Source: a virus (taxonomy: Duplodnaviria; Heunggongvirae; Uroviricota; Caudoviricetes). Taken from it: a stretch of DNA of 64,000 nucleotides. The notes under the pieces are model-generated. The model searched no databases and was not told the DNA's origin. It was given only the letters and a program-made list of their open reading frames with translations. This document shows positions 34,838 through 55,372 of this stretch, piece by piece (positions within the stretch are counted from its first letter, which is position 1; each line of letters opens with the position of its first letter). The stretch lies in IMG/VR virus record IMGVR_UViG_2721755662_000004; one strand, given 5' to 3'. Position numbers and translations under genes: made by a program.

Positions 34838-35487
34838 TGACGACGATTACAGAAATCATCGGACGTGTGAATACACAACTGGTTGACCCGATGATGGTTC
34901 GCTGGTCCCTGCAGGAATTGTGCGATTATTACAATGATGCTGTGAGGGCAGTGATTCTGGCGAGACCGGATGCTGGCGCAAGCCTGGAAACAATCAGTTG
35001 TGTTCCGGGCGCCCGTCAGGTTTTGCCCGATGGTGTAATACAACTTCTTGACGTGATATGCCTCAGTGACGGTAGTGCAGTCAGACCATTATCCCGGGAG
35101 GTGCTGGATGCGCAGTATCCTGAGTGGCTCACAATGAAGGGCATTCCTGAATGTTTTATCAGCAACGACCTGTCCCCGCGCGTATTCTGGCTGTTTCCTG
35201 CTCCTGACAAAGAGATAAGTATTGATGCAGTGGTAAGCCGGATACCGGAGGCAGTGTATGTTCTGACGCAGGACGATGATACGCCAGTTCCACTGGAAGA
35301 TGCTTATGTTAACCCACTGGTGGACTGGATGTTGTTTCGCGCTTTCAGTAAGGATGCTGCCGGTGGCGCAGAATCGGGGCTGGCTGCGCAGCATTATCAG
35401 AGTTTTGTTGAGCAACTTGGGATCAAACAGGGGGCAGACAGTGCATTGTCTGCCCGTAAAAAAGTGTTTAACGGAGGTGGAGTGTGA
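34837..35487 (+). CDS. Virion structural protein (hypothetical)
   Basis: 216-aa ORF, ATGA overlap with upstream gene. Confidence 0.55.
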
Positions 35488-37499
35488 GTGTTGTTGTTTC
35501 GGGGACGCTGAAATCTCCTGATGGTGAGGCGATATCAGGAGCAAATATTACCCTGACGGCGCTGACAGTTTCACCGGATGCGCTCAGCGGCACCAGTGCG
35601 TCGGCAGTGACCCGTGAAGGTGGATATTACGGAATGACGATGGATCCGGGGGAGTATGCGGTTTCGGTGACGGTGAAAGGGAAGACTGCTGTCTACGGAC
35701 GTGTGCGTATTGAGGGGACCGAAAGTACGGTGACGCTCAATATGCTGTTACGCCGCAGTCTTGTTGAGGTGAGCATACCCGGAGAACTGCTGACAGATTT
35801 CCGGCAGATACAGAATAATGTGGCTGATGACCTTGCCACTATTCGTCGCCTGAATGAAGACACGGCGACAAAAAACACTCAGGCCACACAGTCAAAAGAC
35901 AGTGCAGCAGCCAGTGCGAAGAGTGCATCTGACAGTGCAAAGACGGCAACCAGCAGGGCGGCTGAAGCCGGACAAAAAGCCAGTGAAGCTGCAGAAGCGG
36001 CGACCCGGGCATGCGAGTCTGAAAAGGCCGCGGCAGCAGACGCGAATGATGCCAGACAACATGCTGAAACCGCCAGAGTGGCTCATGAGGCCGCCGGAGA
36101 CGTTCTTAAACGTGCTGAGGCTGCTACGGTTAGTGCTGAAGAGGCCAGGCGTATGGCAGAGAATGCCAGAGGCCCTAAAGGTGATACCGGACCGAAAGGT
36201 GATGCAGGCCCTCGTGGAGAAACAGGTCCACAAGGCGCACAAGGACCACGCGGTGAAACAGGACCGGTGGGGCCGCAAGGAGAGCGGGGGATTCAGGGGC
36301 CTGCTGGTCCACGAGGTGAAACCGGGGCCAGAGGTGAAAAAGGAGCCCCCGGAGACCCGGGGGGACCACCCGGGCCGAAAGGTGATGCAGGACCTAAAGG
36401 TGACACCGGACCAGCCGGTCCCGCAGGTGAAAAAGGTGAGCCGGGAGAACGAGGGCCTCAGGGAGAGCAGGGGCTACGCGGACCTGCAGGAGAGAGAGGC
36501 CCGGCGGGGCCGCAGGGACCGAAAGGAGATGCCGGTGCGACAGGTCCGGCAGGTCCGAAAGGTGAACGAGGCGAAGCTGGGCCGCAGGGCCCCCGCGGGG
36601 AGCCTGGTCCGGCGGGCAGCGCAGCAAATGTGGTGGACGCGACGACGGCACAGAAGGGAATTGTGCAGCTAAGTAGTGATACTGCCAGTAATGACGAAAC
36701 AAAGGCTGCCACGTCGAAGGCTGTGAAGGCGGCAATGGATGAGGCCAAGGCGGCGAGACAGAAGGCAGAAGAGGTTGCTGCAGGTGGTGGCGTTCCCGGC
36801 CCGAAGGGAGACAAGGGCGATACGGGTCCGGCAGGCCCACAGGGACCGAAAGGGGATACGGGAGCCGCAGGCCCGGCAGGCGCACAGGGGCCAAAAGGTG
36901 ACAAAGGCGATCCGGGGGTGGCTGGACCAGCAGGTCCGGCGGGGCCACAGGGACCGAAAGGGGATACGGGAGCCGCAGGCCCGGCAGGCGCACAGGGGCC
37001 AAAAGGTGACAAAGGCGATCCGGGGGTGGCTGGACCAGCAGGTCCGGCGGGGCCACAGGGACCGAAGGGAGACACAGGAGCCCCCGGGCAAGGAACAGAA
37101 CTGCTTACTACTGCCAATACATGGACTCAGGCACAAACTTTTAATGGTGGTATTAATGGCAATTTGACGGTGACCGGAAACGGCTCATTTAACGATGTTC
37201 AGATCCGTTCGGATAAACGCAACAAGCGAAATGCAATACGAATAGATAATTGTCTGGAGAAGCTTGACTTGCTAACGGGTTATTTGTATGAAATACAGAA
37301 TGCTGATGGCAGTTGGCAACAATCTGTGGGATTATTTGCACAGGATGCGTTAAAGGCTCAACCAGAGTTAGTTACATCTGATACAGATATCATATCTGGT
37401 GAAGAGAGATTTCGATTAAATTATAATGGTGTTATTGCACTGTTAGTTGAAGGAATAAAAAATCTGCGTAAAGAGATTAGCGACCTTAAAGAGAAATAA
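35484..37499 (+). CDS. Tail fibre/spike with collagen-like Gly-X-Y repeats and C-terminal intramolecular-chaperone-like domain
   Basis: 671 aa; long GPxGxxG tracts; GTG start overlapping upstream stop; C-terminus ...[30 protein letters not shown]...[26 protein letters not shown]. Confidence 0.85.
36839..37054. repeat. Perfect tandem duplication (2 x 108 bp) inside collagen-like region
   Basis: Unit CAGGGACCGAAAGGGGATACGGGAGCC... repeated head to tail; encodes duplicated 36-aa Gly-X-Y block. Confidence 0.8.
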
Positions 37500-38133: not shown

Positions 38134-38367
38134 TTGATAATGTACAAATGTGTTTTAGCTGTATTGATATTATTATCTGGTTGCAAATCTTTGCCAACTC
38201 CGCTTTGCCATGGTAAAGCATATTTAGGTGGGGAAGAAACTATAATGCCAATTTATGGGATTAAGAAAAGCGGGAAGTATAAATTGTATCATGCAGGGCA
38301 TCACTACAACTGGCGTTGGGTTGGAGCTGGAGCATTTGACAGCACAACCTGCTCTCAAATAATGTAA
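38134..38367 (+). CDS. Small lipoprotein, Cor-like (candidate superinfection exclusion)
   Basis: 77 aa; signal peptide with lipobox LLSGC; Cor-like call by position and size only. Confidence 0.5.
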   Translation: MIMYKCVLAVLILLSGCKSLPTPLCHGKAYLGGEETIMPIYGIKKSGKYKLYHAGHHYNWRWVGAGAFDSTTCSQIM

Positions 38368-38707
38368 ATCGTATACTATGTATAAAATGTTTAGCTAATG
38401 CTAATTGATAAATTGTCATGAAACAGGCAAATCTGAAATACGTAAAGAAGCACTACACAGCAGGAGATTTTTGTGTGGCTGGGTGCAGTGGTAACGCTCT
38501 GTGCAGTGGCTGCCGTAATGATGCAATAAAAAGGGGAGCAACATGCTCCCCGACCAGAAGAAAGAAGTTTGATAACAATTAGTGAGTTGTTACGTCTTGC
38601 CCAGAATATCATAGCAACACTCTGTTGCAGTGATACCGATCGCGATTTTAGCGAATTCCATCATAAATCCCCTGATTTTTAAGCCTGAAGCAGTCAAAGG
38701 AATTTCT

Positions 38708-40333
38708 ATGCCCTATATCGATATCACCACGATGCGTGGGATGATGCCGCGCGTTGTGACATCCATGCTGTCCGAGCATTCCGCTGTACTGGCGGAGGAC
38801 TGCCATTTCCGGTTTGGTGTTATTACACCAGAACGTCAGATATCCGGGGTTGAGAAAACATTCACAATTAAGCCAAAAACAATTTTTCATTACCGTGACG
38901 ATTTCTGGTTTGCATGGCCGGATGTGGTGGATGTGATCCGCAGTCCGATCGCTCAGGACCCCCACGGGCGTATTTACTACACTGACGGGCGTTTTCCTAA
39001 AGTGACGGATGCGACTATTGCCACAAAAGGGGACGGGAATCACCCGACATCATCGTATCGTCTTGGGATCCCCGCGCCGACGACAGCTCCTGTCTGTACT
39101 GTCCAGCAGGGCGGTGATGTTTCTGACGATAACCCGAATGATGATGAAACCCGGTTTTATACGGAAACCTTTGTCTCAGATTATGGTGAAGAAGGTCCGC
39201 CAGGTCCGGCGTCTCTGGAGGTAACACTCCGTACTCCGGGAACTGCGGTACAACTGGCGCTGGCTCCGGTACCATTGCAGAATGCCAGTATTAAACGTCG
39301 CCGGATTTATCGCTCTGCATCAGGTGGAGGGGAGGCGGATTTTTTACTTGTGGCTGAACTGGATGCATCCGTGCTCAGTTACACGGACAAAATACCGGCG
39401 AAAAACCTTGGGCCTTCCCTGGCGACATGGGATTACCTGCCGCCGCCAGAGAATATGACAGGCCTTTGCCTGATGGCTAACGGTATTGCCGCCGGGTTTG
39501 CCGGTAATGAAGTGATGTTTTCGGAAGCGTATCTGCCGTATGCATGGCCGGAAGTGAATCGTCACACGACGGCAGAAGATATTGTAGCTATCTGTCCGCT
39601 GGGAACGTCACTGGTGGTGGCGACAAAGGGGGAGCCTTATTTGTTCAGTGGGGTATCACCGTCCACAATTTCTGGTTCCAAAATCCCTTCCATGCAGGCA
39701 TGCCTGAGCCGAAGAAGTATGGTGGCGATGGAGGGATTCGTGCTGTATGCAGGAACAAATGGCCTGGTATCGGTTGATGCAGGCGGCAGTACAGCCGTGG
39801 TAACGGAAAAAATCATTTCACCAGAACAGTGGCAGAGTCAGTTTAATCCGTCGTCCATTGTGGCTTACTCATGGCGTGGTGAGTACATTGCCTGTTACAC
39901 GAAACCTGATGGTAAGCAGGATGTGTTTGTCTTCAACCCGGTGAACATGGATATCCGCTATCTCAGTACACCGTTTGACTGCGCATGGGTTGATCTCGCA
40001 AAAGATATGATGCGCGTGGTGACAGGAGACAAAATGTCAGTGCTTGCCGGGGGCTCTCTGCCGTCCACGATAAGGTGGCATTCAAAAATTTTTTCATTGC
40101 CTGAAAGAACCTCTTTTTCCTGTATCAGGGTGAAATCTCCAGCACCTGAGCGGGTGGGGATCACCGTTATGGCTGATGATGTTCCTGTTATTCATTTTGC
40201 GCCGGGTACGTTTAAGGGAAGTGTGGTGAGACTTCCGGCAGCAACCGGGCAAAACTGGCAGGTGATGGTATCCGGATTTGGGCAGGTGGAACGAATAACC
40301 CTGAGTACATCGATGTCGGAGTTACCGATATGA
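38708..40333 (+). CDS. Tail/virion structural protein (hypothetical)
   Basis: Internal ATG at 38708 with SD; large ORF in structural module. Confidence 0.6.
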   Translation: MPYIDITTMRGMMPRVVTSMLSEHSAVLAEDCHFRFGVITPERQISGVEKTFTIKPKTIFHYRDDFWFAWPDVVDVIRSPIAQDPHGRIYYTDGRFPKVTDATIATKGDGNHPTSSYRLGIPAPTTAPVCTVQQGGDVSDDNPNDDETRFYTETFVSDYGEEGPPGPASLEVTLRTPGTAVQLALAPVPLQNASIKRRRIYRSASGGGEADFLLVAELDASVLSYTDKIPAKNLGPSLATWDYLPPPENMTGLCLMANGIAAGFAGNEVMFSEAYLPYAWPEVNRHTTAEDIVAICPLGTSLVVATKGEPYLFSGVSPSTISGSKIPSMQACLSRRSMVAMEGFVLYAGTNGLVSVDAGGSTAVVTEKIISPEQWQSQFNPSSIVAYSWRGEYIACYTKPDGKQDVFVFNPVNMDIRYLSTPFDCAWVDLAKDMMRVVTGDKMSVLAGGSLPSTIRWHSKIFSLPERTSFSCIRVKSPAPERVGITVMADDVPVIHFAPGTFKGSVVRLPAATGQNWQVMVSGFGQVERITLSTSMSELPI

Positions 40334-41604
40334 GCAAAAAACCGTGGCGGGCGGGGAAGGATTTATCCGCTGTTGTGGAAAATATGGAAATTGGCACCGG
40401 GCAGCGTGGCGACGGTCGTCATGCTTTTGTGACCCGTGAAGAGCTGGTTGGCCTTAAACTTGCCCGACGTCGTACACAGGGTGGTGCGGGTACCTCATAT
40501 GCACTGAATCCAGGAGTTGACATTGACAGCACCTTAATGGCTGTTGATTTTCCCACAAAACCACTGAATTTTAAGGCGACCGGAGGATTTGGTTCAGTTC
40601 TTCTGGAATGGGATGTGGCCAATTATCGGGGGCATTCACTGACAGAAATCTGGCGGGGAACGAAGGACGACCTTTCAGATGCTGTGCTGGTTGCCACGAC
40701 ACCGGGGCAGGTTTATGGTGATCCGGTTGACCCGGGTTGGTCGGGATTTTACTGGATACGCTTTGTCAATGCAGCGGGAGTGAAGGGGCCGTGGCACGCA
40801 GTGGCAGGCGTGGCAGCACAGACACAGATATCAGTTCAGGCGGTGATTGACCAGATAAAAGAAGAGGCGGCGAAGTCTCCCGTCATAGAAGAGCTTCGCA
40901 AGGAAATAAAAAACGCGCAGGGGCAGGCTGTAAAGGATGCGGCAATTAAGACAACCGAAGTTGTGGGGGCTCTCAGGGAGGAAACGACAAGAACGATTGG
41001 TGGTATTGAAACCCGCATAACCACACTGGATTCGTCAACCAGTGAATCGCTTAATGAGGTCGACAAGCGCATCACTAAACTGGATAAAGAAGGCGGTGAG
41101 GCCTTCCTTGCGATGTGGTCAAAAAAAGCGGGAGTTGATGGCATCACTGCGGGGATCGGGATTGTCGCCGGAAAAGACAGTGAAGGCAGGCCTGTAAGTC
41201 AGGTTGCAATTTCTGCGTCACAGCTGTTTGTCTTTGACCCGAATAATCCGGATAACACCGCCTATCCGTTTGCGGTATCAGGTGGCAAGGTAGTGATCCC
41301 GAAAGCGATGATTTATGACGCGGTGATTGAAACACTGGTGTCGCGGAAGGTTGTGGCGGATGAGGTAAAAGCCGGGGTAAGTATCACTTCGCCAGTTATC
41401 CGGAGTGCCGTTATTCAGAACGGAAACTTTCAGGTTGATTCTCAGGGTAACCTGAATATTGGAGGCCTTTTCAGTGTTACGTCACAAGGGCAACTGACAA
41501 TTCGTTACTCTAATCAGAATGTAGGACTGGTGATCCGCAATGATAAAATTGAGGTTTATGATCAGAATGGACGACTGGCTGTTCGCATAGGCAGATTACG
41601 CTGA
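40330..41604 (+). CDS. Tail/virion structural protein (hypothetical)
   Basis: 424-aa ORF, ATGA-coupled. Confidence 0.6.
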   Translation: MSKKPWRAGKDLSAVVENMEIGTGQRGDGRHAFVTREELVGLKLARRRTQGGAGTSYALNPGVDIDSTLMAVDFPTKPLNFKATGGFGSVLLEWDVANYRGHSLTEIWRGTKDDLSDAVLVATTPGQVYGDPVDPGWSGFYWIRFVNAAGVKGPWHAVAGVAAQTQISVQAVIDQIKEEAAKSPVIEELRKEIKNAQGQAVKDAAIKTTEVVGALREETTRTIGGIETRITTLDSSTSESLNEVDKRITKLDKEGGEAFLAMWSKKAGVDGITAGIGIVAGKDSEGRPVSQVAISASQLFVFDPNNPDNTAYPFAVSGGKVVIPKAMIYDAVIETLVSRKVVADEVKAGVSITSPVIRSAVIQNGNFQVDSQGNLNIGGLFSVTSQGQLTIRYSNQNVGLVIRNDKIEVYDQNGRLAVRIGRLR

Positions 41605-43616: not shown

Positions 43617-43757
43617 ATGTCGCAAAAATCGCTCATCACCGTCACAATTTGTATGACGGTAATCTTCACCATCTGGATGTTACACGGCTCGTTGTGTGAG
43701 TTCCGGCTGAATTTGTGGGGAGCGGAGTTTGCGGCGTTCTTACAGTGTAAGCAGTAG
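43617..43757 (+). CDS. Hok-family type I toxin (HokA/HokE-like), second copy in this prophage
   Basis: 46 aa MSQKSLITVTICMTVIFTIWMLHGSLCEFRLNLWGAEFAAFLQCKQ; matches Hok pattern TM-SLCE.R...E.AAFL; AGGAGG SD; followed by strong hairpin. Confidence 0.6.
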   Translation: MSQKSLITVTICMTVIFTIWMLHGSLCEFRLNLWGAEFAAFLQCKQ

Positions 43758-43813: not shown

Positions 43814-44215
43814 ATGGCACCCGTTTCTGGTGAGAGAATGGACGACAAAATTCTCCGGTATATGCAGCGTGTTGTGAGAAATTCCCGCAACCCTGAATTT
43901 ATGAATGAAGTTAAAGACGCCTGCCTTAAAAAGCAGGCGTTTTGTTTTGAGGCACCTGATGGCTTTCTGGTGCTGCGTTCTGTGCTCAGTGCTGATGGTA
44001 TCCCTTATGTTTTGGTGTTGCTGGGCGTGTGTACGGGGAGTAACAGCGTTGAGCGTTATCTGCCGGAGGTGAAGACATTAACCCGTCTGGCTGGCGGACG
44101 CTGGGCTGAATTTCATACGGCAAGACGGGGATTTATCCGGCTGGGAAAACGTCTGGGCTTTGAGCGAATGCCGGATGATGAGGATGGCTTCATGGTGTTC
44201 AGGATAGCGGTCTGA
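43814..44215 (+). CDS. Hypothetical protein
   Basis: 133-aa ORF; alternative start MDDKILRY at 43838 has better SD. Confidence 0.5.
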   Translation: MAPVSGERMDDKILRYMQRVVRNSRNPEFMNEVKDACLKKQAFCFEAPDGFLVLRSVLSADGIPYVLVLLGVCTGSNSVERYLPEVKTLTRLAGGRWAEFHTARRGFIRLGKRLGFERMPDDEDGFMVFRIAV

Positions 44216-44306: not shown

Positions 44307-44963
44307 ATGGGCGGAAAAAAAGGCGGTGGTGATACCAAAGTAAAACCAACAGCAGCGCAAATAGCACAGGAAGAAGTGGCCTGGAAAGGGTGGCAGGATT
44401 ATCAAAAAATCCTCCGCCCGGCTGAAGATAACTTCATGGAAAAGGTCGATGACCTGAACAGTGAGCAGCAGTACGACAATATTGCTGGCACCACAAATCT
44501 GGGGTATCAGAAACAGTTTGGCGAAGCACGGAAGGAGCTGGCGGGTAATCTTGCTCAGTCCGGTGTTGACCCGTCCAGTGGTCGCTTTAACGCGGTAATG
44601 AATGCGAACCAGAGTGATCAGGTAACCGGGCAGATTGACACAACCACACGGGGGCAGGTATCGCAGGCAGATAAGTATGTTGCCGGGCTACAGGATGTTG
44701 CTGCTCTCGGTTCTGGTCAAAAGGCGGATGCGTTACAGAGTTTTAACTCGCTGGCAGACAGCAGTCTGGCAAAAGCTAAATCGGACGCACAGGCTGCGTT
44801 TACGAAACAGCAGGGGCGAGCCTCTCTTGTTGGCGCTGGTTTGGGTGCGGTAGGTGCATATGCGATGTATAAGGCTGGCGGTAGCGGAGGAAGTGGCGGT
44901 GCTAAAACACCTGGCATCGGCGCTAATGCCATTCAGCATCAGGCTCAGAACTGGAGACTGTGA
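44307..44963 (+). CDS. Virion-associated protein (hypothetical)
   Basis: 218 aa; Gly-rich ends; first gene of coupled cluster leading into giant gene. Confidence 0.55.
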   Translation: MGGKKGGGDTKVKPTAAQIAQEEVAWKGWQDYQKILRPAEDNFMEKVDDLNSEQQYDNIAGTTNLGYQKQFGEARKELAGNLAQSGVDPSSGRFNAVMNANQSDQVTGQIDTTTRGQVSQADKYVAGLQDVAALGSGQKADALQSFNSLADSSLAKAKSDAQAAFTKQQGRASLVGAGLGAVGAYAMYKAGGSGGSGGAKTPGIGANAIQHQAQNWRL

Positions 44964-45412
44964 TTATGGAGTACGGTAAATACGAAACACTTGCGAGATA
45001 CGGTTATACCGGAGCTGCCCGTCCACAGGGTGACTGGCAGACGTCAGCAGCGCTGACACGCCAACAATACGACGACTGGCGAACCAGATATTTGCCCCGC
45101 GTGGCAAGGCTGGCTGACCTTGGCGAGAACAACAGCCTGATGAATGCACAGCTTGCCCGGGTGGGCGGCCTTGCCACTTCCAGTCTCCGTACAGCGCAGA
45201 TGGCGCAGGATAACCAGATGGCGAGATACGGGGTAAGCCGCCCGGATAATCCCAACAGTAACACACTGGGTTTGCGTAATGCTCTGGCAATTGCTGGCGC
45301 GAAAAATGGTATCCGTGAAGCAGAGCAGGATCGCCAGATGAACATACTGACGGGGGCTTCTGCACCTGCAAGACAACAACTGAGTGTTGGCGGAAAACTG
45401 GTGTCAGCGTAA
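44960..45412 (+). CDS. Hypothetical protein
   Basis: 150-aa ORF overlapping upstream stop. Confidence 0.5.
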   Translation: MIMEYGKYETLARYGYTGAARPQGDWQTSAALTRQQYDDWRTRYLPRVARLADLGENNSLMNAQLARVGGLATSSLRTAQMAQDNQMARYGVSRPDNPNSNTLGLRNALAIAGAKNGIREAEQDRQMNILTGASAPARQQLSVGGKLVSA

Positions 45413-45421
45413 GGGGGCAAT

Positions 45422-45673
45422 ATGGGATACGGTTTACTGGATATTGCGAATCAGTCGCGGCGTGAGGCATTACAGGGAATAAGTGATGCCGACAGACGAC
45501 GTGAAGAAATTGAGGCCGCGAACAAACAGATGGCGGCGCAACAGAAAGCGCAGAACAAACAGAATATCGGCACGGGAATTGGTACGGGTGCAGCTATGGG
45601 CGCTGCTGTTGGTGGTCTCCCCGGTGCGGCTATTGGTGCTGTCATAGGTGGTATTGCTGGTTCTTTGTTTTAA
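45422..45673 (+). CDS. Small glycine-zipper membrane protein
   Basis: C-terminus GTGIGTGAAMGAAVGGLPGAAIGAVIGGIAGSLF. Confidence 0.55.
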   Translation: MGYGLLDIANQSRREALQGISDADRRREEIEAANKQMAAQQKAQNKQNIGTGIGTGAAMGAAVGGLPGAAIGAVIGGIAGSLF

Positions 45674-45683
45674 GGAGTGGTGA

Positions 45684-46949
45684 ATGAGCGGATTTGCACA
45701 GGGTTTACTTGCCGGATTCAGCACGGTTGACCAGGCAATGACCCGTCGTAAGGAACTTGGTTTGCGAGAAGCACAGCTTGCTCAACAACAGAAAAATAAC
45801 GAGCGCGATTTTGAATTTGCACAGTCGCAGTTTGAACATAATAAAGACGTTGATCAGCGGAACTTTGATTACAGAGCCAAAGTCGACGACCGTAATTATG
45901 CACTGCAGGAAAGGGAGTTTAACGCCAACCAGAATTACCGGAATGCGTCGCTGGGTATGGAGCAGCAGCGACTCCGGATGCAGAAATACAACCAGCGACG
46001 GCTTGAGTATAACGATATGCTGGCGCGCGATCAGCCTGTGATGGCGGCGCTTGGAAAGGCTGTGGATGCTGGCGATCGGGATGCAGCAATGCGTCTTTAC
46101 GGCCAGTTGTCAGAGGGTAATCCGCTGAGGCTGATGGCGAATGATGGCTATGTAGCGAAAGCGGGTCAGGCCGTGAACAACCTGCAAAAAATCTTTGATG
46201 ACAAGCCAGACAGGGCTATCGCTTCACTTAATACGCCGGAGAATCTTGATGTCCTTTCCGGGGTGTTTGGCCCGGAACTGCAACAGCGTATTGGCATGCC
46301 CGATTCAACCGGGAAAAAGACGATAAAAGAGGCCAGGATTGGCAGTATAGTACCGGCACAGCAGGAAGGGTACATACTTATCGGCCTTGATCTCACATAC
46401 AGTGATGGCTCTACAGCACATAAACCCGTTACGGAATACGGCAGTGCACATCCTGATGATCAAACCGTGCTGGCGGTGCCTGTTGATAAGGCTGTTGAGC
46501 TTGTCAGGGAACGCAGTAAATTCGCGGAAATTTCGAAAAATTTCGGCTATTTCACGCCGAAGCAGCAGGGACTTTCTGCGGATCAACTTCAGAAAGGAGC
46601 CAGCCAGGTAGCGATAAAGGTTGCACAGGACGGCGGTGATGCGCAGGGAGCAGTGACGCAATATTATGCTTCGATGGGACTGCCGCAGTATCAGCAGCAA
46701 ATTCAGCAGCAAAAAATTCAACAAGGGATTACCAGTTGGGCGGGTGATGATCCGGATAAGCAGGCATTTGCCAGAGAAGTGGCCTCCCGTCAGCCAGAAA
46801 TGCTGGAGCCTCAGAATCAGAAATTGCTGGAACACGGGTATGCGAATTTTCTCCGTATTCAAAAGGCCAGGGAGGAACAGGCCAGGGATGATAGCGCGGC
46901 CTCTGCATCTGAGTTTATCCGTGGTCTGAAACAGAATTACGCGCAGTAA
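45684..46949 (+). CDS. Hypothetical virion-associated protein
   Basis: 421-aa ORF with SD, coiled-coil-rich. Confidence 0.55.
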   Translation: MSGFAQGLLAGFSTVDQAMTRRKELGLREAQLAQQQKNNERDFEFAQSQFEHNKDVDQRNFDYRAKVDDRNYALQEREFNANQNYRNASLGMEQQRLRMQKYNQRRLEYNDMLARDQPVMAALGKAVDAGDRDAAMRLYGQLSEGNPLRLMANDGYVAKAGQAVNNLQKIFDDKPDRAIASLNTPENLDVLSGVFGPELQQRIGMPDSTGKKTIKEARIGSIVPAQQEGYILIGLDLTYSDGSTAHKPVTEYGSAHPDDQTVLAVPVDKAVELVRERSKFAEISKNFGYFTPKQQGLSADQLQKGASQVAIKVAQDGGDAQGAVTQYYASMGLPQYQQQIQQQKIQQGITSWAGDDPDKQAFAREVASRQPEMLEPQNQKLLEHGYANFLRIQKAREEQARDDSAASASEFIRGLKQNYAQ

Positions 46950-47017
46950 TTCACCATTCCCGTTAATACTATTTCCTGATACCCGGTCATTGTGCCGGGT
47001 TTTTTTATGGAGTCTGT

Positions 47018-50000
47018 ATGGCTTATTCCGATGAACAGCGCCCTGAAGCGCAATTTGGCAACCAGAGCCGCAACAGCCTGAACATTCAGCAGCCGGGAGA
47101 GACTGACAGCTATGATGTGTTTTTCTCCGATCCCAATCGCTGGAAGGACAACAGCACGTCGTTCAGCCTGGGCGATGTATTGCCAACTATGGGGAAAGGT
47201 GTCGCCCAGTCCGTCCGGGGGACAGGGGAAATGGCCCGTGGACTCGGTGATGCGATGATTCAGAGCCCGGTAAAAACAGGGGTACGTATTTTAAATGAGT
47301 TCAGCCGTATGGGGCTGCCGGGAGTCGCAACTGTTCAGGATATTTTTGTCGGTGGCAGCAAGGGGGCGGATGAGGTCATCGACACTCTGCCTGATGGAAA
47401 AAATGCGGTTACTGATACTGTCGGTAAAGGTCTGAAGGTCACAGGCAAGGCCGTCAGTGGCGGCGCTAAAGCCTCGGATGAATGGCTGACTGGCAAGATG
47501 TCGCCGGGGGCGCAGCGGGCGCTGAATACACCGATGACTGAAGGATATGATGATTCAGCGGTCTGGGTAGCGAAAGGGGTTAACCTGATTGGTGCGCTTG
47601 TACCGGATATGGTTGCAGGCGGTGTGACTAAAAAGCTGGGTGATGTCACTCTGCGAAAAGTGCTGACCGCCGGGCTGGAGAAAAAATACATCGCGGCAGG
47701 GATGCAGCCGGAAAGAGCCACAGCACTGGCAGCCGAAGCTGTCGATAAAAAAATGCCGGATTTTTTCCAGGCAGGCCTGATCACCCATTCCACTGTCAGT
47801 GCGCAAGGGCGGAGTGCAATGGCAGCGGCAGATGCTGTTCTTAACGCGGATTATTCTGAGCTGGCGAAGTCACCGAAATTTCAGCAGACCTTTTTGTCAA
47901 TTGATGCAGATCCGCAGCACGCGCAGCTTACTGACCGCCAGAAAATGGACCTGGCAAAAGAGCGTGTTGCCGATGAGGTGCGTGCGCAGCTGGCAACCGA
48001 TCCTGAATTGCTGGCTGTGAATGCCATGGCGGCAAAACTGGGCGATGCTCAGTTGCTTAATCTGGCGATGCGGGGCACGGCGAAGACCGTTAAAAGCGGC
48101 ATTGTCAGAAATGCCACGGAACAGGGGACGATTAATGCGGCGCAGGGTGGCTATTCACGCTATCAGGAAAACACGGCATTGCGTGAGACCGCCGGAATGG
48201 ATGTGTCACCGTGGGAGGGCGTGGCTGACGCAACGATCGAAGGTGCAGCCCTTGGTGCTGCAATGGGGGCACCATTCGGTGCGGCTGCCGGATATCGTGG
48301 AAAACGTCAGGCGGCAGATGAAGCAGCCATGCGTGAGGCTGAAAGCGTTCCTCAGGACGAATCGGCTCCGCAACCCGAACCGGTTGATCCGGTGGCACAG
48401 CATCGTGAATCTATGCAGGGGATGAATCGCGAGCAGCTTCTGGAACAGTATGCTGATGCGGATATGGCACATGAGGGAGACACGTCTGCCGTTCATCGCC
48501 GGGAAGCCGCCAGCCAGCTGTTGAATGAACTGGATGAACAGGCGAAGCGACAGGCGGTGATGGATGAGCTGAAGGCGAAGCCGCGCCCTGAACTGCTTGA
48601 GGAATACCGAAAACTCAGCCAGAAGGAAGGGCGTACTGATACTGAAGAGCAGCAGTTACAGGCAATACGTGATGTGCTTCGCCCTCAGCGGGAGGCCAGA
48701 CCGGAGGCACAGCCACAGCCGGAAAATGCGGATGATGGCGACGGGAGTATTTACCCGACGGTGCGGTTCCGCGATCCGGATGAAGTTCGTATTGAAATTA
48801 ACGAGAGTGGTGCGTCCAGACCAGCAGAACGCATTGAAAAGGTGCGTCCGGACAACCGTTATTTCACGGATGAAAAAAGTGCTCTGGGGAGCGACGTTTT
48901 CCGCAATGCCAGCGCCACCGGCCTGAAACCGTCCGTAGTGAAGAAAGGCGAGAATCAGTATGCCGTTGAAATGGATAATCCTGCGTTCTCTGAAGATGTG
49001 GCAACGGAGACCATTAACACTCTGGCTGACGGAGAGCGTATTACTGATGCTGATCCGATGGAACAGCCCGCGTTCATGCGTGACCCGCGATTCCGTGGTT
49101 TTACGGGGGATGATACAGAAGTGCAGGCCCGTCTTGCTCGTGGCAACGCGCCGACGGCGGAAGAACTGGTGCGTTCCCAGATGGCTGAAGGTGATGCCGG
49201 TCCGACAGCACAGGAGTTAACTGAGCGTCCACGCCTTCCCGCTCCCGGCGATATTCATCCCGGACAGGGATATCCGTTACCAGGAGAAGTAGCGCGTACG
49301 CCGGATGAAAATCAGGCCGGACGTGGTGGTCGTTTTACCACAACCGGTGAGGTGAAGGGCCAGAGTTTCCAGAAAGGACGTGCGCAGGCACCGGAAAATG
49401 CCGCTGGTCGCCAGGGGGAAATACTGGAGGGCGAAACAGTTCGTCGTGGTCTGCCGTCACCGGATGAGCAGAACGCCACAGCACCAGTGCGTGAAGGTCT
49501 TCCTGCACCTGAAAGTCAGCGTGGGGTTGATATGCCACAGCCTGAATCACTCCCTCGTATGGTTCGTGACTCCCTTCCGGAACTGGCACAGCAGGCAGAA
49601 GCACGCAGACAGACCGGGGATAATCGCCAGACCATAACCGATGTTCCGGATACTGAGGTGCCGGTGCCGGTAGATAAACCGAGCACTCACCAGCAGGCGC
49701 GTGGTGCGAAAATTGAAGACTTTGGCGAGGAGATTAAGGGCGCGGCAAAACACCGTTATGCGCAGCTTGCTGAAGCTATGGGTAAAACGCTGGAGGATGG
49801 GGAGTACGCGACACAACCACTGAGCAAACTGTTTCCAAAGCCGGATTATGCCCGTCTGGAAAAAGAAGGTGTGGATAGTGACACGCTGGCAATGATGGCG
49901 TTGTATCGCAGTGAAATTCCCACCAGAACAAGCCGTAACATGCAGAAATGGATCAGCATTGTTAAAAGCGGTCGCGAAGCTACTGCCGGTATGCTGGAGG

Positions 50001-53000
50001 GGAAAATTCCGGCAGCGAAACTGGCTGATATGATGGACAGTAAGCCGGGGTTACGGAGCATGTCGGATACCTGGAAACTGCTCCGTACGCTTTCTGCATT
50101 GCAGATTGATAAAGCATCCGGCTATCGTGTCAGGTCCGGTGTTTATTCGTTTGTCGGGGGAAAACGTTACGATCCGCCGCAAATGATGTATTCGCTTCGT
50201 GATAGCAAGGGGCGCGACCTCTTTTTCTCGGAAAGCCGGGATGAGTTACTGAAAAAGGCGAAAGCATATTTCGATGAACAAGGCTCCAGAGAAAGGGAAA
50301 CGCCAGCAACCTCTGCTGATGACAGAATAACCTTTGACGTGTACCGGCATAAGGCCAGTGGCGACATTTTTATCGGTTATGGCAAAAACAGGCAGAAACT
50401 GAAGGGCGGTTTTGAGTCTGCCCGTGATGCACATGATTATGTGCGCACACATCGTGATGAGCTGGTTAATCAGGTGAAGGCGCTGCGTGAAGTCTCGCGT
50501 GAGGAGCAGCGTAACGCCACCAACCGCGATCGTACCGGACCAGAACGCCGCAAGGGGGATGTTTCGCCGGAGCAGTTCAGTGATGCGTTTGGTTTTCGTG
50601 GTGTGCAGTTTGGTAATTATGTGGAAAGTCCGCGTCGTCAGGCTGATTTGAACCGGGCTTATGACTCGCTGCATGACCTGGCTGACGTGCTGAACGTGCC
50701 GACAAAAGCGCTTTCTCTGAACGGTCGTCTTGGGCTTGCTTTTGGTGCCCGTGGTAAGGGTAAGGCGGCGGCACACTATGAGCCGGGTGAGGTGGCAATC
50801 AACCTGACAAAAGGTAACGGACCGGGGGCGCTGGCCCACGAATGGTTCCATTCACTGGATAATTATTTTGGTCGTTATGATGTTTCCACTGACGGGAAGA
50901 TCACGTCAGGTGGCGACTATATGACGGAAGCACAGCGTGCCGGGCGCGTATTTAAAGACGGCAGGTATGTTGATGCGGAATATCCGGTACGTCAGGAGGT
51001 TTACGACGCGTTTAAAGGCGTGATGAAAGCCATTAACAGCAGTGACATGTTGCGTCGTTCTGAACGCCTGGATGGCGTTCGTTCAAAACCGTACTGGTCA
51101 ACGGATGTTGAAATGGCGGCGCGAGCCTTTGAGCGTTATGTTCAGGATAAAGCGCGTATGGCTGGCGTGGAGAATGATTATCTGGTCAATATCCGTAAGG
51201 CGGATGACCATGGACAGCCGGACACCTACGCTTATCCGACGAATGCAGAACTGGATGGCGGTATTCGTGAGGCATTCGATCACTTGTTCCGAACACTGAA
51301 AACCCGTGAGACGGACAAGGGAGTTGCGTTTTATTCCCGTAAGGGCGTGACCCGCACACCTGAAGGCAATCTGATTTCGGATGTTAACCGCAGTGCGGAA
51401 GCCAAAGGCAGTCCGGTCCCGCAGGTTGAAGCTGTTGCCCGTGGCGTGATTAGTGGCATTAAGGACAGTGACCTGAAGGTCCGCGTGGTGAAGTCACAGA
51501 AAGAGGCTGAAGCACTGGCGGGTGAATCATTCGACGGTTACGGCAAGGTGCACGCGTTCTATCGTCCGGATAAACGTGAAATTGTCCTGGTGGCGGATAA
51601 CATCCCTGACGGGCGGACCGTTCGCGAGAAGTTACGTCACGAGATTATTCACCATGCAATGGAGCATGTAGTCACGCCAGCGGAATATCAGACGATTATT
51701 AAGACCGTGCTGAAAACCCGTGACAGTGATAACGCCACCATCCGTGAAGCCTGGCGTAAGGTTGATGCGTCTTATGGTAAGGAATCACCGGAAGTGCAGG
51801 CGGGTGAATTTCTGGCGCATATGGCAGAGAAGCAGCCGATTAAATTCGTGGCGGCATGGGAGCGTGTTGTTGCCCTGGTCAAAGGGGTACTGCGTCGTAC
51901 GGGGTTACTGAAGCCGACGGAACTGAACGATATCAGACTTGTTCGCGAAACTATTCGCACGTTAGGCCAGCGTGTGCGGGAAGGTTACACGCCGCGTGAG
52001 GATGGCGCGGACGCATCGTCTCAGTACTCCCGTAGCGGTAAGCCTGATCCGTTCAAAGTGCCGGAAGGTGAGGGCGAGCGTTATCGTGATGACCTTGCCA
52101 GAATGATGAAGTCTCTGCGCACCACAGATTTAACGGTAAACATCGGGCGTACGCCGCCGGTATTGCGTCACCTTGGCGCACCAGATTTGCCGCTGGTTAT
52201 CTCCCGCGACACTGTGCGTAAGGCCACCAATGGAGTGAAACATGTGGTGCCGATGGATGTTATCGAGAGACTACCGGAACTGATGCACGATCCGGATGCA
52301 ATTTACCGTTCCGCGACAGAAAGAAATGCGGTTGTGATGCTGCTTGATGCCATGGATAAAAATGGTGATCCTGTAGTGTCAGCGGTACACATGAAGGCTG
52401 TCCGGTCGCGCCTGGAAATCAACAAGGTAGCTTCGGTTTACGGTACGGAAGGAGGAATGAATAAGGCAAATAGTCTGGATAAAGCCGGATTAACGCTTTA
52501 CCGGAAGAAAAAATTAAGCCGCGATAACCTTCTGCACAGAGGGCTTCAATTGCCCAAAGGGGAACATTCTTATCGCGGCTCTGTAGATAAAATACTCTAT
52601 CCTGAAGATATTCGCAAGGGGCCGTATTACTCCCGCACCAGCAGTCTGACGCCGGAAGAGACAATTGCATCCCGTTTTGTTCGCCAGATGCAGGATAAAT
52701 TCCAGGTGCTGAAGGCGGTGCAGGAGAATATCCGTAAAACTGGCGGAAAAATAGATGACAGCAATAACGCCTATATGGCTGAAGAACTCTTCCACGGGAA
52801 GGCGGAAAACGACCTGAACGTAATGAAGGAGCGCTACGTTCAGCCGCTGGCCAAATTGCTGGCGGACTACAAAATTGCGCAGGCCGATCTGGATGAGTAC
52901 CTCTACGCCCGTCACGCGCCGGAACGTAACGCGCATATTGCGAAAATCAACCCGAAAATGCCGGACGGCGGTTCGGGGATGACCAACGCGGAAGCGGCGG

Positions 53001-55372
53001 AAATCATGCAGCGTGTGCGTAACAGCGGCAAACAGGCACAGTATGACCGTCTGGCAGGGATTATTGACGATATGCTGGCCCGTCGCCGTGAGATTATCCG
53101 TGAGGCAGGACTGGAAGAGAGCGGCGTGGTGGATGCCTGGCAGAAAGCCTACCGTTACTACGTCCCCCTGAAAGGGCAGGATGTTGACGGTGTGGTGTCA
53201 CTGCCACGTACAGGCAAGGGATTCACCATCGGCGGGCGTGAAAGTAAGCAGGCCATGGGGCGTGCATCCCGCGCACAGTCTCCTTCCACTCAGGCGATAC
53301 AGGATTTGAGTGAATCGCTGATCCGCAATCGCAAAAATGAAGTGGGTAACGCCTTCCTGAAACTGGTACAGGATAATCCCGACAAGGATTACTGGCAGGT
53401 ATTCACTGATGACAGACCGGATACAATGCGTGTGATTGCAGAGCGCAAGGACCAGGAAACTGGTGAAACCATTCGCGAAGTTGTCGAGCGCCCTGTGCCG
53501 ATGGCAATGATGGCGGATCGCTACTTCACCACCAAAAAGGACGGCAAAACTTACTACATTAAACTTCATGATCCGCGCCTGATGCGTGCGATGAAGAACA
53601 TGGGGCCGGAAACCAGTAACGCCGTAATCCGTACGCTGGGGAAAGTTAACCGCTTCCTGGCAACGGTGAACACGTCGTATAACCCGGAATTTCTGGTCAG
53701 TAACTTCATCCGTGACGTGCAGACTGCGGTGATGAACCTGAAGGCTGAGCAGGGAAGAAGCGACGGCAAACTGAAAGGGCTGGATAACTTATCCGCGCTG
53801 GCTGTGGTGAAAGACAGCCGTTCCGCCATGTCAGCCGTATACGCAAGTCTGCGGGGTAAAACCCTCACGGGCAAAGGCGCACAGTGGCAGAAAGTGTGGA
53901 AAGAGTTTGTTGAGGACGGAGGTAAAACCGGCTGGTTTAACATGGGTGACCTTGAGGGCCAGCAGAAGGAAATGGATCGCCTTGTGTCGCTGGCGAAGGG
54001 CGGATGGAAAGGCCAGAGTATCGGTGCATGGCATTCGTTCCTGAACCTGGTCGAGGATGCCAACGGCGCGGTTGAAAACGCTCTGCGTCTTTCTGCCTAT
54101 AAACACGCCCGTGATGCCGGTTTGTCACGCCAGCAGGCGGCGTCTCTTGCCAAAAACATGACGGTGAACTTTAACCGTCGTGGTGAGCAGGGGATGCTGA
54201 TGAACTCGCTGTACATGTTTGCCAACGCCAGCATTCAGGGGACCGCAAACCTGGTGAGAACGCTCGGACATCTTAATGGCGACGGGCCGTTACTGGAGCG
54301 CCTTCGCTGGAAGAATCTCAATGTACCGCAGAAAATCGTGCTTGCAGCTGTGGGAGCGGGTTATCTGCTTGGCTCGCTTAACCGCAGTGTGGCGGGTGAG
54401 GATGATGACGGGGTTAACTGGTACGACAAAGTACCGTCTCATGTGAAAGAGCGTAACCTCGTCATCATGAAATCGATGTTCGGGGGCAAGGCCGGTGAGT
54501 ACTGGAGTATTCCTCTGCCTTACGGGTACAACGTGTTCTTCCTGCTTGGTCATACAGCTGAAGGTGTGGCAGCGGGCGACCTGACTGCTTCACGTGCTGC
54601 CGGTAATGTTGTCGGCGGTATCCTGGGGGCATTCAGCCCGATCGGCAGCGAGATGTCGGAAACGTTGTCGGGGGCATTGCTGAAAAATGCAGCACCGACA
54701 ATTCTGCGTCCGTTTGCGAATCTTGCCATGAACGAAAACTTCATGGGGGCGCAGATTTACCAGGAGAACATGCCGTTTGGTACACCAAAACCTGACAGCC
54801 AGCTGGGAAGACGTTCAACGCCAGAAGCGTACAAGGCGTTTGCATTCTGGCTGAATGCGTTCTCAGGTGGCAGCCAGTATCGTCCCGGCGCGGTGGATAT
54901 CACACCGGAATCGCTGAAATTCTGGATTGACTATATCTCCGGAGGGACAGGGCGCTTCATTTCCAAAACCACGGATGCGGCGGTGAAATCGCTGAATGGT
55001 ATTGATATACCGGAACAGCAGGTGCCCTTCCTGGGGAAAATTTCGGGTGAGGTGATGCCGTATGCAGACCAGCAGAAGATGTACGACCGGATGACAGAGG
55101 TTGCGCAGTATCACGCAGAGCTGAAGAGTCTAACCGGTGCAGAAAGAACGGCGTTCATTGACGAGAACAACGGAAAATTGTTGATGAACGGGCTTATGCA
55201 GGATACCCGGAAGAGACTGAAGGATTTGCGCAAACAGCGCGATGCCATTTATGCCGACAGTTCTCTCAGTCTGGCGCAGCAGGCGGCGATGGTGAAATCG
55301 GTAGAGCGGGATATGAAGGTTGCCGTGGATCGGTTTAACCGCGAGTACAACAAAAAAGTGGGAGTGGATTAA
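47018..55372 (+). CDS. Giant 2784-aa protein with zincin-like HExxH motif (polyvalent-type virion protein)
   Basis: Single uninterrupted ORF of 8.35 kb; internal ALAHEWFHSLDNYFG motif; multi-segment composition. Confidence 0.8.
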   Translation: MAYSDEQRPEAQFGNQSRNSLNIQQPGETDSYDVFFSDPNRWKDNSTSFSLGDVLPTMGKGVAQSVRGTGEMARGLGDAMIQSPVKTGVRILNEFSRMGLPGVATVQDIFVGGSKGADEVIDTLPDGKNAVTDTVGKGLKVTGKAVSGGAKASDEWLTGKMSPGAQRALNTPMTEGYDDSAVWVAKGVNLIGALVPDMVAGGVTKKLGDVTLRKVLTAGLEKKYIAAGMQPERATALAAEAVDKKMPDFFQAGLITHSTVSAQGRSAMAAADAVLNADYSELAKSPKFQQTFLSIDADPQHAQLTDRQKMDLAKERVADEVRAQLATDPELLAVNAMAAKLGDAQLLNLAMRGTAKTVKSGIVRNATEQGTINAAQGGYSRYQENTALRETAGMDVSPWEGVADATIEGAALGAAMGAPFGAAAGYRGKRQAADEAAMREAESVPQDESAPQPEPVDPVAQHRESMQGMNREQLLEQYADADMAHEGDTSAVHRREAASQLLNELDEQAKRQAVMDELKAKPRPELLEEYRKLSQKEGRTDTEEQQLQAIRDVLRPQREARPEAQPQPENADDGDGSIYPTVRFRDPDEVRIEINESGASRPAERIEKVRPDNRYFTDEKSALGSDVFRNASATGLKPSVVKKGENQYAVEMDNPAFSEDVATETINTLADGERITDADPMEQPAFMRDPRFRGFTGDDTEVQARLARGNAPTAEELVRSQMAEGDAGPTAQELTERPRLPAPGDIHPGQGYPLPGEVARTPDENQAGRGGRFTTTGEVKGQSFQKGRAQAPENAAGRQGEILEGETVRRGLPSPDEQNATAPVREGLPAPESQRGVDMPQPESLPRMVRDSLPELAQQAEARRQTGDNRQTITDVPDTEVPVPVDKPSTHQQARGAKIEDFGEEIKGAAKHRYAQLAEAMGKTLEDGEYATQPLSKLFPKPDYARLEKEGVDSDTLAMMALYRSEIPTRTSRNMQKWISIVKSGREATAGMLEGKIPAAKLADMMDSKPGLRSMSDTWKLLRTLSALQIDKASGYRVRSGVYSFVGGKRYDPPQMMYSLRDSKGRDLFFSESRDELLKKAKAYFDEQGSRERETPATSADDRITFDVYRHKASGDIFIGYGKNRQKLKGGFESARDAHDYVRTHRDELVNQVKALREVSREEQRNATNRDRTGPERRKGDVSPEQFSDAFGFRGVQFGNYVESPRRQADLNRAYDSLHDLADVLNVPTKALSLNGRLGLAFGARGKGKAAAHYEPGEVAINLTKGNGPGALAHEWFHSLDNYFGRYDVSTDGKITSGGDYMTEAQRAGRVFKDGRYVDAEYPVRQEVYDAFKGVMKAINSSDMLRRSERLDGVRSKPYWSTDVEMAARAFERYVQDKARMAGVENDYLVNIRKADDHGQPDTYAYPTNAELDGGIREAFDHLFRTLKTRETDKGVAFYSRKGVTRTPEGNLISDVNRSAEAKGSPVPQVEAVARGVISGIKDSDLKVRVVKSQKEAEALAGESFDGYGKVHAFYRPDKREIVLVADNIPDGRTVREKLRHEIIHHAMEHVVTPAEYQTIIKTVLKTRDSDNATIREAWRKVDASYGKESPEVQAGEFLAHMAEKQPIKFVAAWERVVALVKGVLRRTGLLKPTELNDIRLVRETIRTLGQRVREGYTPREDGADASSQYSRSGKPDPFKVPEGEGERYRDDLARMMKSLRTTDLTVNIGRTPPVLRHLGAPDLPLVISRDTVRKATNGVKHVVPMDVIERLPELMHDPDAIYRSATERNAVVMLLDAMDKNGDPVVSAVHMKAVRSRLEINKVASVYGTEGGMNKANSLDKAGLTLYRKKKLSRDNLLHRGLQLPKGEHSYRGSVDKILYPEDIRKGPYYSRTSSLTPEETIASRFVRQMQDKFQVLKAVQENIRKTGGKIDDSNNAYMAEELFHGKAENDLNVMKERYVQPLAKLLADYKIAQADLDEYLYARHAPERNAHIAKINPKMPDGGSGMTNAEAAEIMQRVRNSGKQAQYDRLAGIIDDMLARRREIIREAGLEESGVVDAWQKAYRYYVPLKGQDVDGVVSLPRTGKGFTIGGRESKQAMGRASRAQSPSTQAIQDLSESLIRNRKNEVGNAFLKLVQDNPDKDYWQVFTDDRPDTMRVIAERKDQETGETIREVVERPVPMAMMADRYFTTKKDGKTYYIKLHDPRLMRAMKNMGPETSNAVIRTLGKVNRFLATVNTSYNPEFLVSNFIRDVQTAVMNLKAEQGRSDGKLKGLDNLSALAVVKDSRSAMSAVYASLRGKTLTGKGAQWQKVWKEFVEDGGKTGWFNMGDLEGQQKEMDRLVSLAKGGWKGQSIGAWHSFLNLVEDANGAVENALRLSAYKHARDAGLSRQQAASLAKNMTVNFNRRGEQGMLMNSLYMFANASIQGTANLVRTLGHLNGDGPLLERLRWKNLNVPQKIVLAAVGAGYLLGSLNRSVAGEDDDGVNWYDKVPSHVKERNLVIMKSMFGGKAGEYWSIPLPYGYNVFFLLGHTAEGVAAGDLTASRAAGNVVGGILGAFSPIGSEMSETLSGALLKNAAPTILRPFANLAMNENFMGAQIYQENMPFGTPKPDSQLGRRSTPEAYKAFAFWLNAFSGGSQYRPGAVDITPESLKFWIDYISGGTGRFISKTTDAAVKSLNGIDIPEQQVPFLGKISGEVMPYADQQKMYDRMTEVAQYHAELKSLTGAERTAFIDENNGKLLMNGLMQDTRKRLKDLRKQRDAIYADSSLSLAQQAAMVKSVERDMKVAVDRFNREYNKKVGVD

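Follow-up and report, generated by a model that had tools for sequence, protein, structure and literature searches.

What is the role of a protein of 2784 amino acids (aa) in a short-tailed phage? The question is raised by a stretch of 64,000 nucleotides (nt), the IMG/VR virus record IMGVR_UViG_2721755662_000004 (referred to below as the window), which appears to be a Sepvirinae-type Escherichia coli prophage of the podovirus type that lacks Shiga toxin (Stx) genes. The last gene of its late block encodes a giant protein. The short-tailed Stx phages, which carry Shiga toxin genes from one E. coli to another, devote about 13% of their genome to this one gene. Already on record are the gene itself and the domains it encodes, the assignment of its product to the polyvalent proteins, the association with the virion and a proposed role in ejection (PMC5512222; PMC5155283; bioRxiv 10.64898/2026.04.10.717836; RefSeq/Pfam), the polyvalent family having been described in 2017 and the virion association reported in 2026. 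To this our analysis adds refined domain boundaries, a link between the HExxH motif and the Pfam family LPD1, a second predicted zincin-type domain outside Pfam, an architecture with constant ends, a conserved five-gene module and a C-terminal module without a solved structural counterpart. We propose that the giant protein is an encapsidated polyvalent ejection protein of a Sepvirinae (933W/Sp5/phi24B-type) podophage, which carries effectors and cuts itself. As a whole we regard this reading as probable, with considerable room for doubt.

The list of open reading frames (ORFs) and the translation confirm a single 8.35-kb frame on the plus strand, running from ATG to TAA with no internal stop, as the preliminary description of the locus had it. 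A GGAG ribosome-binding site lies 5 nt 5' of the ATG. The protein matches phrog_616 over its full length. The gene is 100% identical in E. coli strain FORC_069 (WP_000331665.1, annotated 'LPD38 domain-containing protein') and was found in 427 of 5426 complete E. coli genomes. Moreover, 186 phage records match the full 8.35 kb at 90-96% nt identity, all from Stx-converting or related short-tailed phages (Sepvirinae/Traversvirus), e.g. Stx2-converting phage 86, whose gp35 (annotated 'LPD5 domain-containing protein') shares 96.3% aa identity with the protein studied here. Sp5 ORF80, phi24B gp47, Stx2-86 gp35 and the 933W-type giant late protein are orthologues with the same Pfam domains and the same place after a 421-aa gene; they differ little in length (2784 aa here, 2783 in Stx2-86, 2793 in Sp5, 2811 in phi24B as annotated).

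Matches to LPD5, LPD1 (E=7.6e-23), MuF_C and LPD38, all exceeding the Pfam cut-offs, lie in one chain encoded among late genes (Table 1), so that the multi-segment architecture of the polyvalent type that had been suggested is borne out. The zincin-like signature noted earlier is likewise present. It lies in the peptide ALAHEWFHSLDNYFG (aa 1271-1285, nt 50828-50872) as HEWFH (aa 1274-1278), which in the Pfam scan falls in the gap between LPD5 and LPD1 (aa 1351-1430). From the composition of the giant protein (39 His, 194 Glu) 0.038 HExxH strings are expected, and 3.6% of 20,000 shuffled versions contain one. The main argument against a chance match is conservation, since the motif is at least 90% conserved over 91 homologues (32-66% identity), which include many solo proteins of 330-470 aa. 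In this alignment the same level of conservation is reached by H1253 (in AAHYEP), H1274, E1275, W1276, H1278 and D1281 and, in the LPD1 part, by D1352, Y1359, E1365, A1368, R1369, F1371 and E1372. Iyer et al. described for the metallopeptidases (MPTases) of polyvalent proteins a His ending strand 2, an Asp three residues after HExxH and, as third zinc ligand, a Glu on the second helix (PMC5512222); the conservation seen here agrees with this pattern of His, HExxH, Asp and Glu helix.

A structure predicted by AlphaFold2 for aa 1040-1440 on the same alignment has a mean predicted local distance difference test score of 90.5 and a predicted template modelling score of 0.82. In model numbering, a helix (165-186) is followed by three strands (200-203, 213-216, 221-224), a helix that holds HExxH (233-249) and a helix that holds E1365 and E1372 (324-342); LPD5 forms two beta3-alpha units. 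The predicted domain thus has the elements of the zincin core, namely an N-terminal helix, a three-stranded sheet, the HExxH helix and the Glu helix. Because sequence conservation and predicted fold agree, the reading of this segment (domain 1) as a zincin is supported as a prediction, and as a putative zincin metallopeptidase it may bind zinc and hydrolyse peptide bonds. Pfam LPD1 appears to be the Glu-helix half of domain 1 and probably no separate domain. The NCBIfam model CLCA_X (NF041907) scores 153.8 bits over aa 1172-1427, under its curated cut-off of 260 bits; judged by profile score, the region is related to CLCA_X and not a member by the NCBI threshold. The nearest folds of domain 1 are those of lethal factor, Pro-Pro endopeptidases, MtfA, thermolysin and neprilysin, all protein or peptide endopeptidases, and no peptidoglycan peptidase is found in the top 60 fold matches. 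Identity to anthrax lethal factor and the Pro-Pro endopeptidases (M34) and to MtfA (M90) is only 11-14%, and compared with the gluzincin endopeptidases domain 1 has an extra conserved His before and an Asp after the motif. The neighbours of one solo homologue with LPD5, MPTase and LPD1 (P0096) are small hypothetical genes only.

The giant protein contains a second HExxH string, HEIIH (aa 1541-1545), which is really an HExxxH motif (aa 1541-1546). An exhaustive HMMER search with aa 1430-1740 (E<=1e-3) found 425 cluster representatives, nearly all of them giants of 2000-6000 aa. Among the matches H1541 is conserved in 156 of 159, E1542 in 157 of 159, H1546 in 135 of 159, E1597 in 162 of 163 and E1604 in 147 of 163; none of H1541, E1542, H1546 and E1597 varies in an alignment with solo proteins of 210-270 aa. 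Judged by these residues, the segment (domain 2) would correspond to the 'HEXXXH' MPTase clade of Iyer et al. (PMC5512222), and a zincin fold may be predicted for it. Domain 2 escapes every Pfam model, both in the giant protein and in the ten short homologues that were scanned. With the threshold relaxed to E<=10, Pfam scans of six segments gave nothing new beyond weak matches to Gly-zipper and, in the domain 2 segment, to Peptidase_M76 (E=0.18), and for neither zincin domain did profile searches, nor for the whole protein phmmer, return a match among all PDB sequences. The possibility that the two zincin domains are paralogues is a suggestion. When the untrimmed profiles were compared by hhalign, only the overlap of flanking residues was matched; with trimmed domains 'HAFYRPD..IVLVADNI..LRHE' was aligned to 'AAHYEPG..VAINLTK..LAHE' at only 3.6% probability. 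Some giant relatives (P0266, P0390, P0267, P0268, P0273) carry two MuF-C copies or two HExxxH-domain copies per polypeptide.

Downstream of domain 2, PF18819 (MuF_C) is matched with 61.3 bits against a cut-off of 27.6. In the paper that defined it, MuF_C is an RNase-like domain of the PBECR (barnase-EndoU-colicin-RelE) fold and not a peptidase (PMC5512222). Among 79 unique sequences a 'VKH' His and a 'SaT' Ser/Thr are conserved along with a number of further polar positions, which is consistent with an active enzyme, predicted to be RNase-like; mapped through the description in PMC5512222, the 'VKH' His and the 'SaT' Ser/Thr would be the catalytic positions. The phi24B preprint labels MuF-C a metallopeptidase and bases its proposal of peptidoglycan degradation on that label. 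The present assignment corrects the label, the zincin-type domains lying elsewhere in the chain. No segment varies more among close relatives than MuF_C. Identity to Stx2-86 gp35 is lowest at nt 52100-52700 (aa ~1700-1900), with 85-90% as compared to 97-100% in the flanks, and E. coli and Salmonella prophages carry MuF-C-region alleles that are only 50-71% identical. The great divergence of these alleles suggests that the RNase-like cargo has been replaced cassette-style. One Salmonella fragment of the MuF-C region is named phosphoribosyltransferase.

The ends of the protein behave differently from its middle. When ten segments were mapped onto 113 giant relatives, N1 (aa ~100-430) was N-terminal and the series C1-C2-LPD38-Cend was C-terminal; the HExxxH domain usually stood directly ahead of the C module and the middle was variable. 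The C module, i.e. the last 915 residues, is encoded by at least 455 viral contigs and can be aligned over 95-99% of its length with many phage proteins (33-58% identity) that differ upstream of it. In a Pfam scan of six such relatives ART-PolyVal, a methyltransferase, PBECR1 or LPD3 was found ahead of the LPD38-containing module. Since ADP-ribosyltransferase, methyltransferase or RNase-like domains are swapped in relatives, the middle behaves as cargo and not as scaffold. Within N1 a single stretch, aa 181-199, is moderately hydrophobic, and aa 406-433 weakly resemble a Gly-zipper. The region that follows (~aa 451-890) is probably disordered, judging by its few hydrophobic residues and its richness in E, P, Q and R. 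The C module has a single hydrophobic helix (aa ~2436-2458) and, by sequence and fold comparison, no counterpart among solved structures.

The giant gene is preceded by a cassette of four genes on the same strand, and the cluster of coupled small genes that had been described, including a glycine-zipper protein, is indeed present. It comprises a 218-aa gene (44307-44963), a 150-aa gene that overlaps it (44960-45412), an 83-aa gene (45422-45673) and, directly before the giant gene, a 421-aa gene (45684-46949), which by its position would be the equivalent of Sp5 ORF79/ECs1241. The 83-aa protein has a Gly-zipper-like hydrophobic tail at its C-terminus and matches Gly-zipper_YMGG with E=4.5e-6, just under the Pfam cut-off. 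In divergent viral contigs, whose C modules are 40-56% identical to the one studied here, the four genes (23-46% identical) keep the 218/150/83/421-aa order immediately ahead of the giant gene. Cysteine is absent from all four cassette proteins, from the giant protein and from the 424-aa protein at the needle position further upstream; the neighbouring 133-aa and 567-aa proteins contain Cys.

Experiments on the orthologues show that the giant protein is needed and that it is packaged, as are the homologues of the cassette proteins. In phage Sp5, ORF80 (2793 aa) and the preceding ORF79 are essential; the heads of mutants in either are filled with DNA and are not bound by antibody to the tail fibre (Mondal et al. 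2016). For phi24B, virions of caesium chloride grade were analysed by mass spectrometry, and the supplementary table of peptide-spectrum matches (PSMs) lists 10,962 for the giant gp47, second only to the capsid protein (17,998), 1,634 for gp48 (421-aa gene), 523 for gp51 (218-aa gene), 129 for gp50 (150-aa gene) and 13 for gp49 (83-aa gene) (bioRxiv 10.64898/2026.04.10.717836). In the same supplement gp48 is labelled 'Transcription factor?', though it is clearly virion-associated. Peptides of gp47 come from N1 (residues 358-369 with 84 PSMs, 399-406 with 72), zincin domain 1 (1265-1272 with 55, 1344-1352 with 74), zincin domain 2 (1548-1560 with 80) and the C module (2134-2142 with 56, 2407-2414 with 103), and most gp47 PSMs were in four gel slices above the portal band. 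From the similar peptide counts in every region and from the upper gel slices it follows that the particle contains gp47 in its entirety, to a large extent at high molecular weight. The protein is not visible in the cryo-electron microscopy map of phi24B, and the authors propose that it is an ejection protein (bioRxiv 10.64898/2026.04.10.717836). The preliminary description had spoken of a virion-packaged ejection protein: packaging holds for the orthologue gp47, and ejection we infer.

We envisage the following course of events. The giant protein would be made late, together with the four small Cys-free cassette proteins, and packed inside the head; all its regions would reach the virion, largely as high-molecular-weight species, and infectious, tailed particles would require it. 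Upon release of the tail needle it would leave the capsid with the DNA through the portal and the tail channel. The constant N module (aa 1-450) and C module (aa 1870-2784) may, with the 83-aa and 421-aa proteins, serve incorporation into the head and crossing of the envelope, and the middle, with LPD5, the two zincin-type metallopeptidase domains and the PBECR/MuF-C RNase-like domain, would be the cargo. The likeliest substrate of the peptidase domains would be the polyprotein to which they belong, cut at its long linkers; the cargo would thereby be freed in the new host, and the RNase-like domain may act on host or defence RNA. A more far-reaching version of this course, a self-dismantling injected polyprotein whose C module and N1 build a new type of podophage trans-envelope channel with the 83-aa and 421-aa proteins and whose zincins, by cutting the chain in the recipient cell, free a fast-evolving PBECR RNase that disables RNA-dependent defence or host tRNA or mRNA, we consider speculative and rather unlikely. 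If it were true, this activity would influence which E. coli strains are lysogenised by Stx-type phages. The domain boundaries give precise targets for mutagenesis, namely the predicted active sites H1274/E1275/H1278 and H1541/E1542/H1546, the His and Ser/Thr of the RNase-like domain and the constant end modules.

Podophage ejection proteins often bear a cell-wall enzyme, as does a relative from phage JC1 with a lysozyme domain of the lytic transglycosylase type. The gp16 protein of T7 is a transglycosylase. It could thus be argued that one or both zincin domains cut the peptide cross-links of peptidoglycan so that the conduit reaches the inner membrane, the more so as Pfam gives no lysozyme match in the giant protein and another wall-breaching activity would be useful. 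A peptidoglycan role has been proposed for phi24B (bioRxiv 10.64898/2026.04.10.717836), but the peptidase is assigned there to MuF-C, an RNase-like PBECR fold (PMC5512222). The fold neighbours of domain 1, which include no peptidoglycan peptidase, and the occurrence of the same domains in polyvalent proteins and as solo proteins also speak against this idea, which we judge to be weaker than a self-cutting ejection protein and doubtful. It is about equally doubtful that the giant protein is mainly a structural or assembly factor, such as an internal core, a head-completion factor or a tail scaffold, with the HExxH domains as relics or of use in virion maturation only. Such a role would fit its great abundance in phi24B virions and the Sp5 deltaORF80 mutant, which packages DNA and binds no tail-fibre antibody, so that ORF80 was classed by the authors as a tail-formation gene; it would also fit the virion RNA polymerase (vRNAP) of N4, which is packaged unprocessed and whose zincin-containing region is needed for encapsidation. 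However, the catalytic-type residues of both zincin domains are near-invariant across distant relatives, the middle is domain-swapped in relatives, and in phi24B the giant does not belong to the ordered tail or portal. An ejection protein with enzymatic cargo accommodates these observations better than a scaffold does.

Two further proposals concern the DNA and the energy of assembly. That the giant is DarB-like and counters restriction by modifying or shielding the DNA on its entry is suggested by phrog_10089 ('DarB-like antirestriction'), which matches aa 2345-2672 with E=8.5e-27, and by the Bcep22-like relatives, which are annotated DarB-like and are virion-associated. Yet this match is confined to the LPD38 part of the shared C module, and neither an N6-adenine methyltransferase, an SF2/SNF2 helicase nor LPD36 is found with Pfam and NCBIfam, nor is a Walker A motif present; we hold such a function to be very improbable. 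Membership of the DarB family itself is rejected, the defining methyltransferase-helicase dyad not being found in the giant protein. The Sp5 paper reported a match to COG1483, with the suggestion of an AAA+ ATPase powering a step of tail assembly (Mondal et al. 2016). No ATPase family is matched at E<=0.1 with Pfam and NCBIfam or at E<=10 in the segment scans, and even a loose form of the Walker A motif is absent. The COG1483/AAA+ suggestion is therefore unsupported and we give it hardly any credence. A tape-measure or purely structural tail protein is rejected as well: no such family is matched, the phage is a podovirus, and the domain searches along the protein, proposed at the outset as a check, found enzyme-type domains.

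With the phage-type polyvalent proteins of Iyer, Burroughs, Anand, de Souza & Aravind 2017 (PMC5512222), which are giant, multi-domain and encoded among late virion genes, the protein shares zincin MPTases, in both variants (His + HExxH + Asp; HExxxH), a PBECR-type domain and LPD domains, and there is no difference in kind. Against Stx2-86 gp35, divergence peaks in the MuF-C region and in the N-terminal 500 aa, and the prophage studied here is without stx. The Bcep22-like (Lessievirus) phage JC1 has a virion-associated giant of 4515 aa, gp69, annotated 'DarB-like', with LPD38 at aa 4195-4401; it is preceded by virion-associated proteins of 196 aa and 510 aa, and the portal, capsid and head-closure proteins of JC1 resemble those of 933W. 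Where JC1 gp69 has a lytic transglycosylase, a methyltransferase, a helicase and LPD3, the giant here has LPD5, two zincin domains and MuF-C instead. The proteins gp14/15/16 of T7 and gp73/72/71 of the N4-like phage DEV are encoded in the same order of small membrane protein, mid-size helical protein and encapsidated giant. The zincin MPTase of N4 vRNAP (gp50) is located in the C-terminal region on which encapsidation depends, and it is through its C-terminal part that DEV gp71 binds the protein of the periplasmic tunnel. Unlike N4 and DEV vRNAP and T7 gp16, the giant here has no RNA polymerase or transglycosylase domain, and its C module has no sequence or fold similarity to solved ejection proteins. 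By this comparison the likeness to the T7, N4 and DEV sets would be one of organisation only.

Table 1. Positions of the giant gene, its segments and upstream elements, counted from the first nucleotide of the window
Feature	Position	Strand	Remarks
Giant polyvalent protein gene	47018..55372	+	orthologue of Sp5 ORF80/ECs1242, phi24B gp47, Stx2-86 gp35
N1 module, aa 1-450	47018..48367	+	Gly/Ala-rich; recurs N-terminally in many giant relatives
Low-complexity E/P/Q/R-rich region (~aa 451-890), then conserved segment preceding LPD5 in relatives	48368..50155	+	
LPD5, aa 1047-1190	50156..50587	+	Pfam PF18799, E=4.5e-43
Zincin-like metallopeptidase domain 1, aa ~1196-1435	50603..51322	+	predicted; includes Pfam LPD1 match
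HEWFH codons	50837..50851	+	
Predicted zincin-type domain 2 (HExxxH), aa ~1455-1680	51380..52057	+	outside all Pfam models
MuF_C / PBECR RNase-like domain, aa 1740-1832	52235..52513	+	Pfam PF18819, E=1.1e-16
C-terminal module, aa 1870-2784	52625..55369	+	mostly alpha-helical; includes LPD38
LPD38, aa 2467-2672	54416-55033	+	Pfam, E=2.6e-47
Upstream cassette, four Cys-free genes	44307..46949	+	
Terminator-like hairpin and T7 run	46981..47007	+	

The interval from the 421-aa gene's stop codon to the ribosome-binding site of the giant gene contains a terminator-like hairpin (ACCCGG, a 6-nt loop and CCGGGT, followed by a run of seven T). Its RNA folds with -17 kcal/mol (z = -3.66 as compared to shuffles). 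Expression of the giant gene might hence be lower than that of the upstream cassette, unless Q-modified polymerase reads through.

Concerning the remainder of the late block, a Q antiterminator (19595-20128) and a NanS-p-type esterase (20894-22804) are followed by a P22-like portal (28788-30932), a capsid protein (32120-33334), a collagen-repeat fibre (35484-37499) and Lom. Where phi24B has its nozzle (gp57) and needle (gp56) genes, the window has genes of 567 aa (38630-40333) and 424 aa (40330-41604), which presumably correspond to them, judging by order and size. The portal, capsid, fibre, nozzle-position and needle-position genes all lie upstream of the giant gene on the same strand. There are no tRNA genes in the window and no Stx-like (A-subunit) peptide motifs in any frame, and Q and the esterase gene are separated by only 766 bp; for these reasons the prophage appears to be stx-negative. 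It lies beside ynfF, with ynfG truncated.

Some minor features of the region may be added. Between the giant gene and the host junction lie Ea22-like, antirepressor and DUF551 early-left genes and no integrase. By comparison with the identical region of FORC_069, the right end (~61500-64000) adjoins ynfF with a remnant of ynfG. The FORC_069 region also has a gene for the Cor exclusion lipoprotein (~38140-38367) upstream of the 567-aa gene and a Hok/Gef-family toxin gene (~43617-43757) between lom and the 133-aa gene. The latter ORF (43814-44215, phrog_610) encodes three Cys and is kept in only few divergent loci; it may be a moron, outside the cassette of internal proteins.

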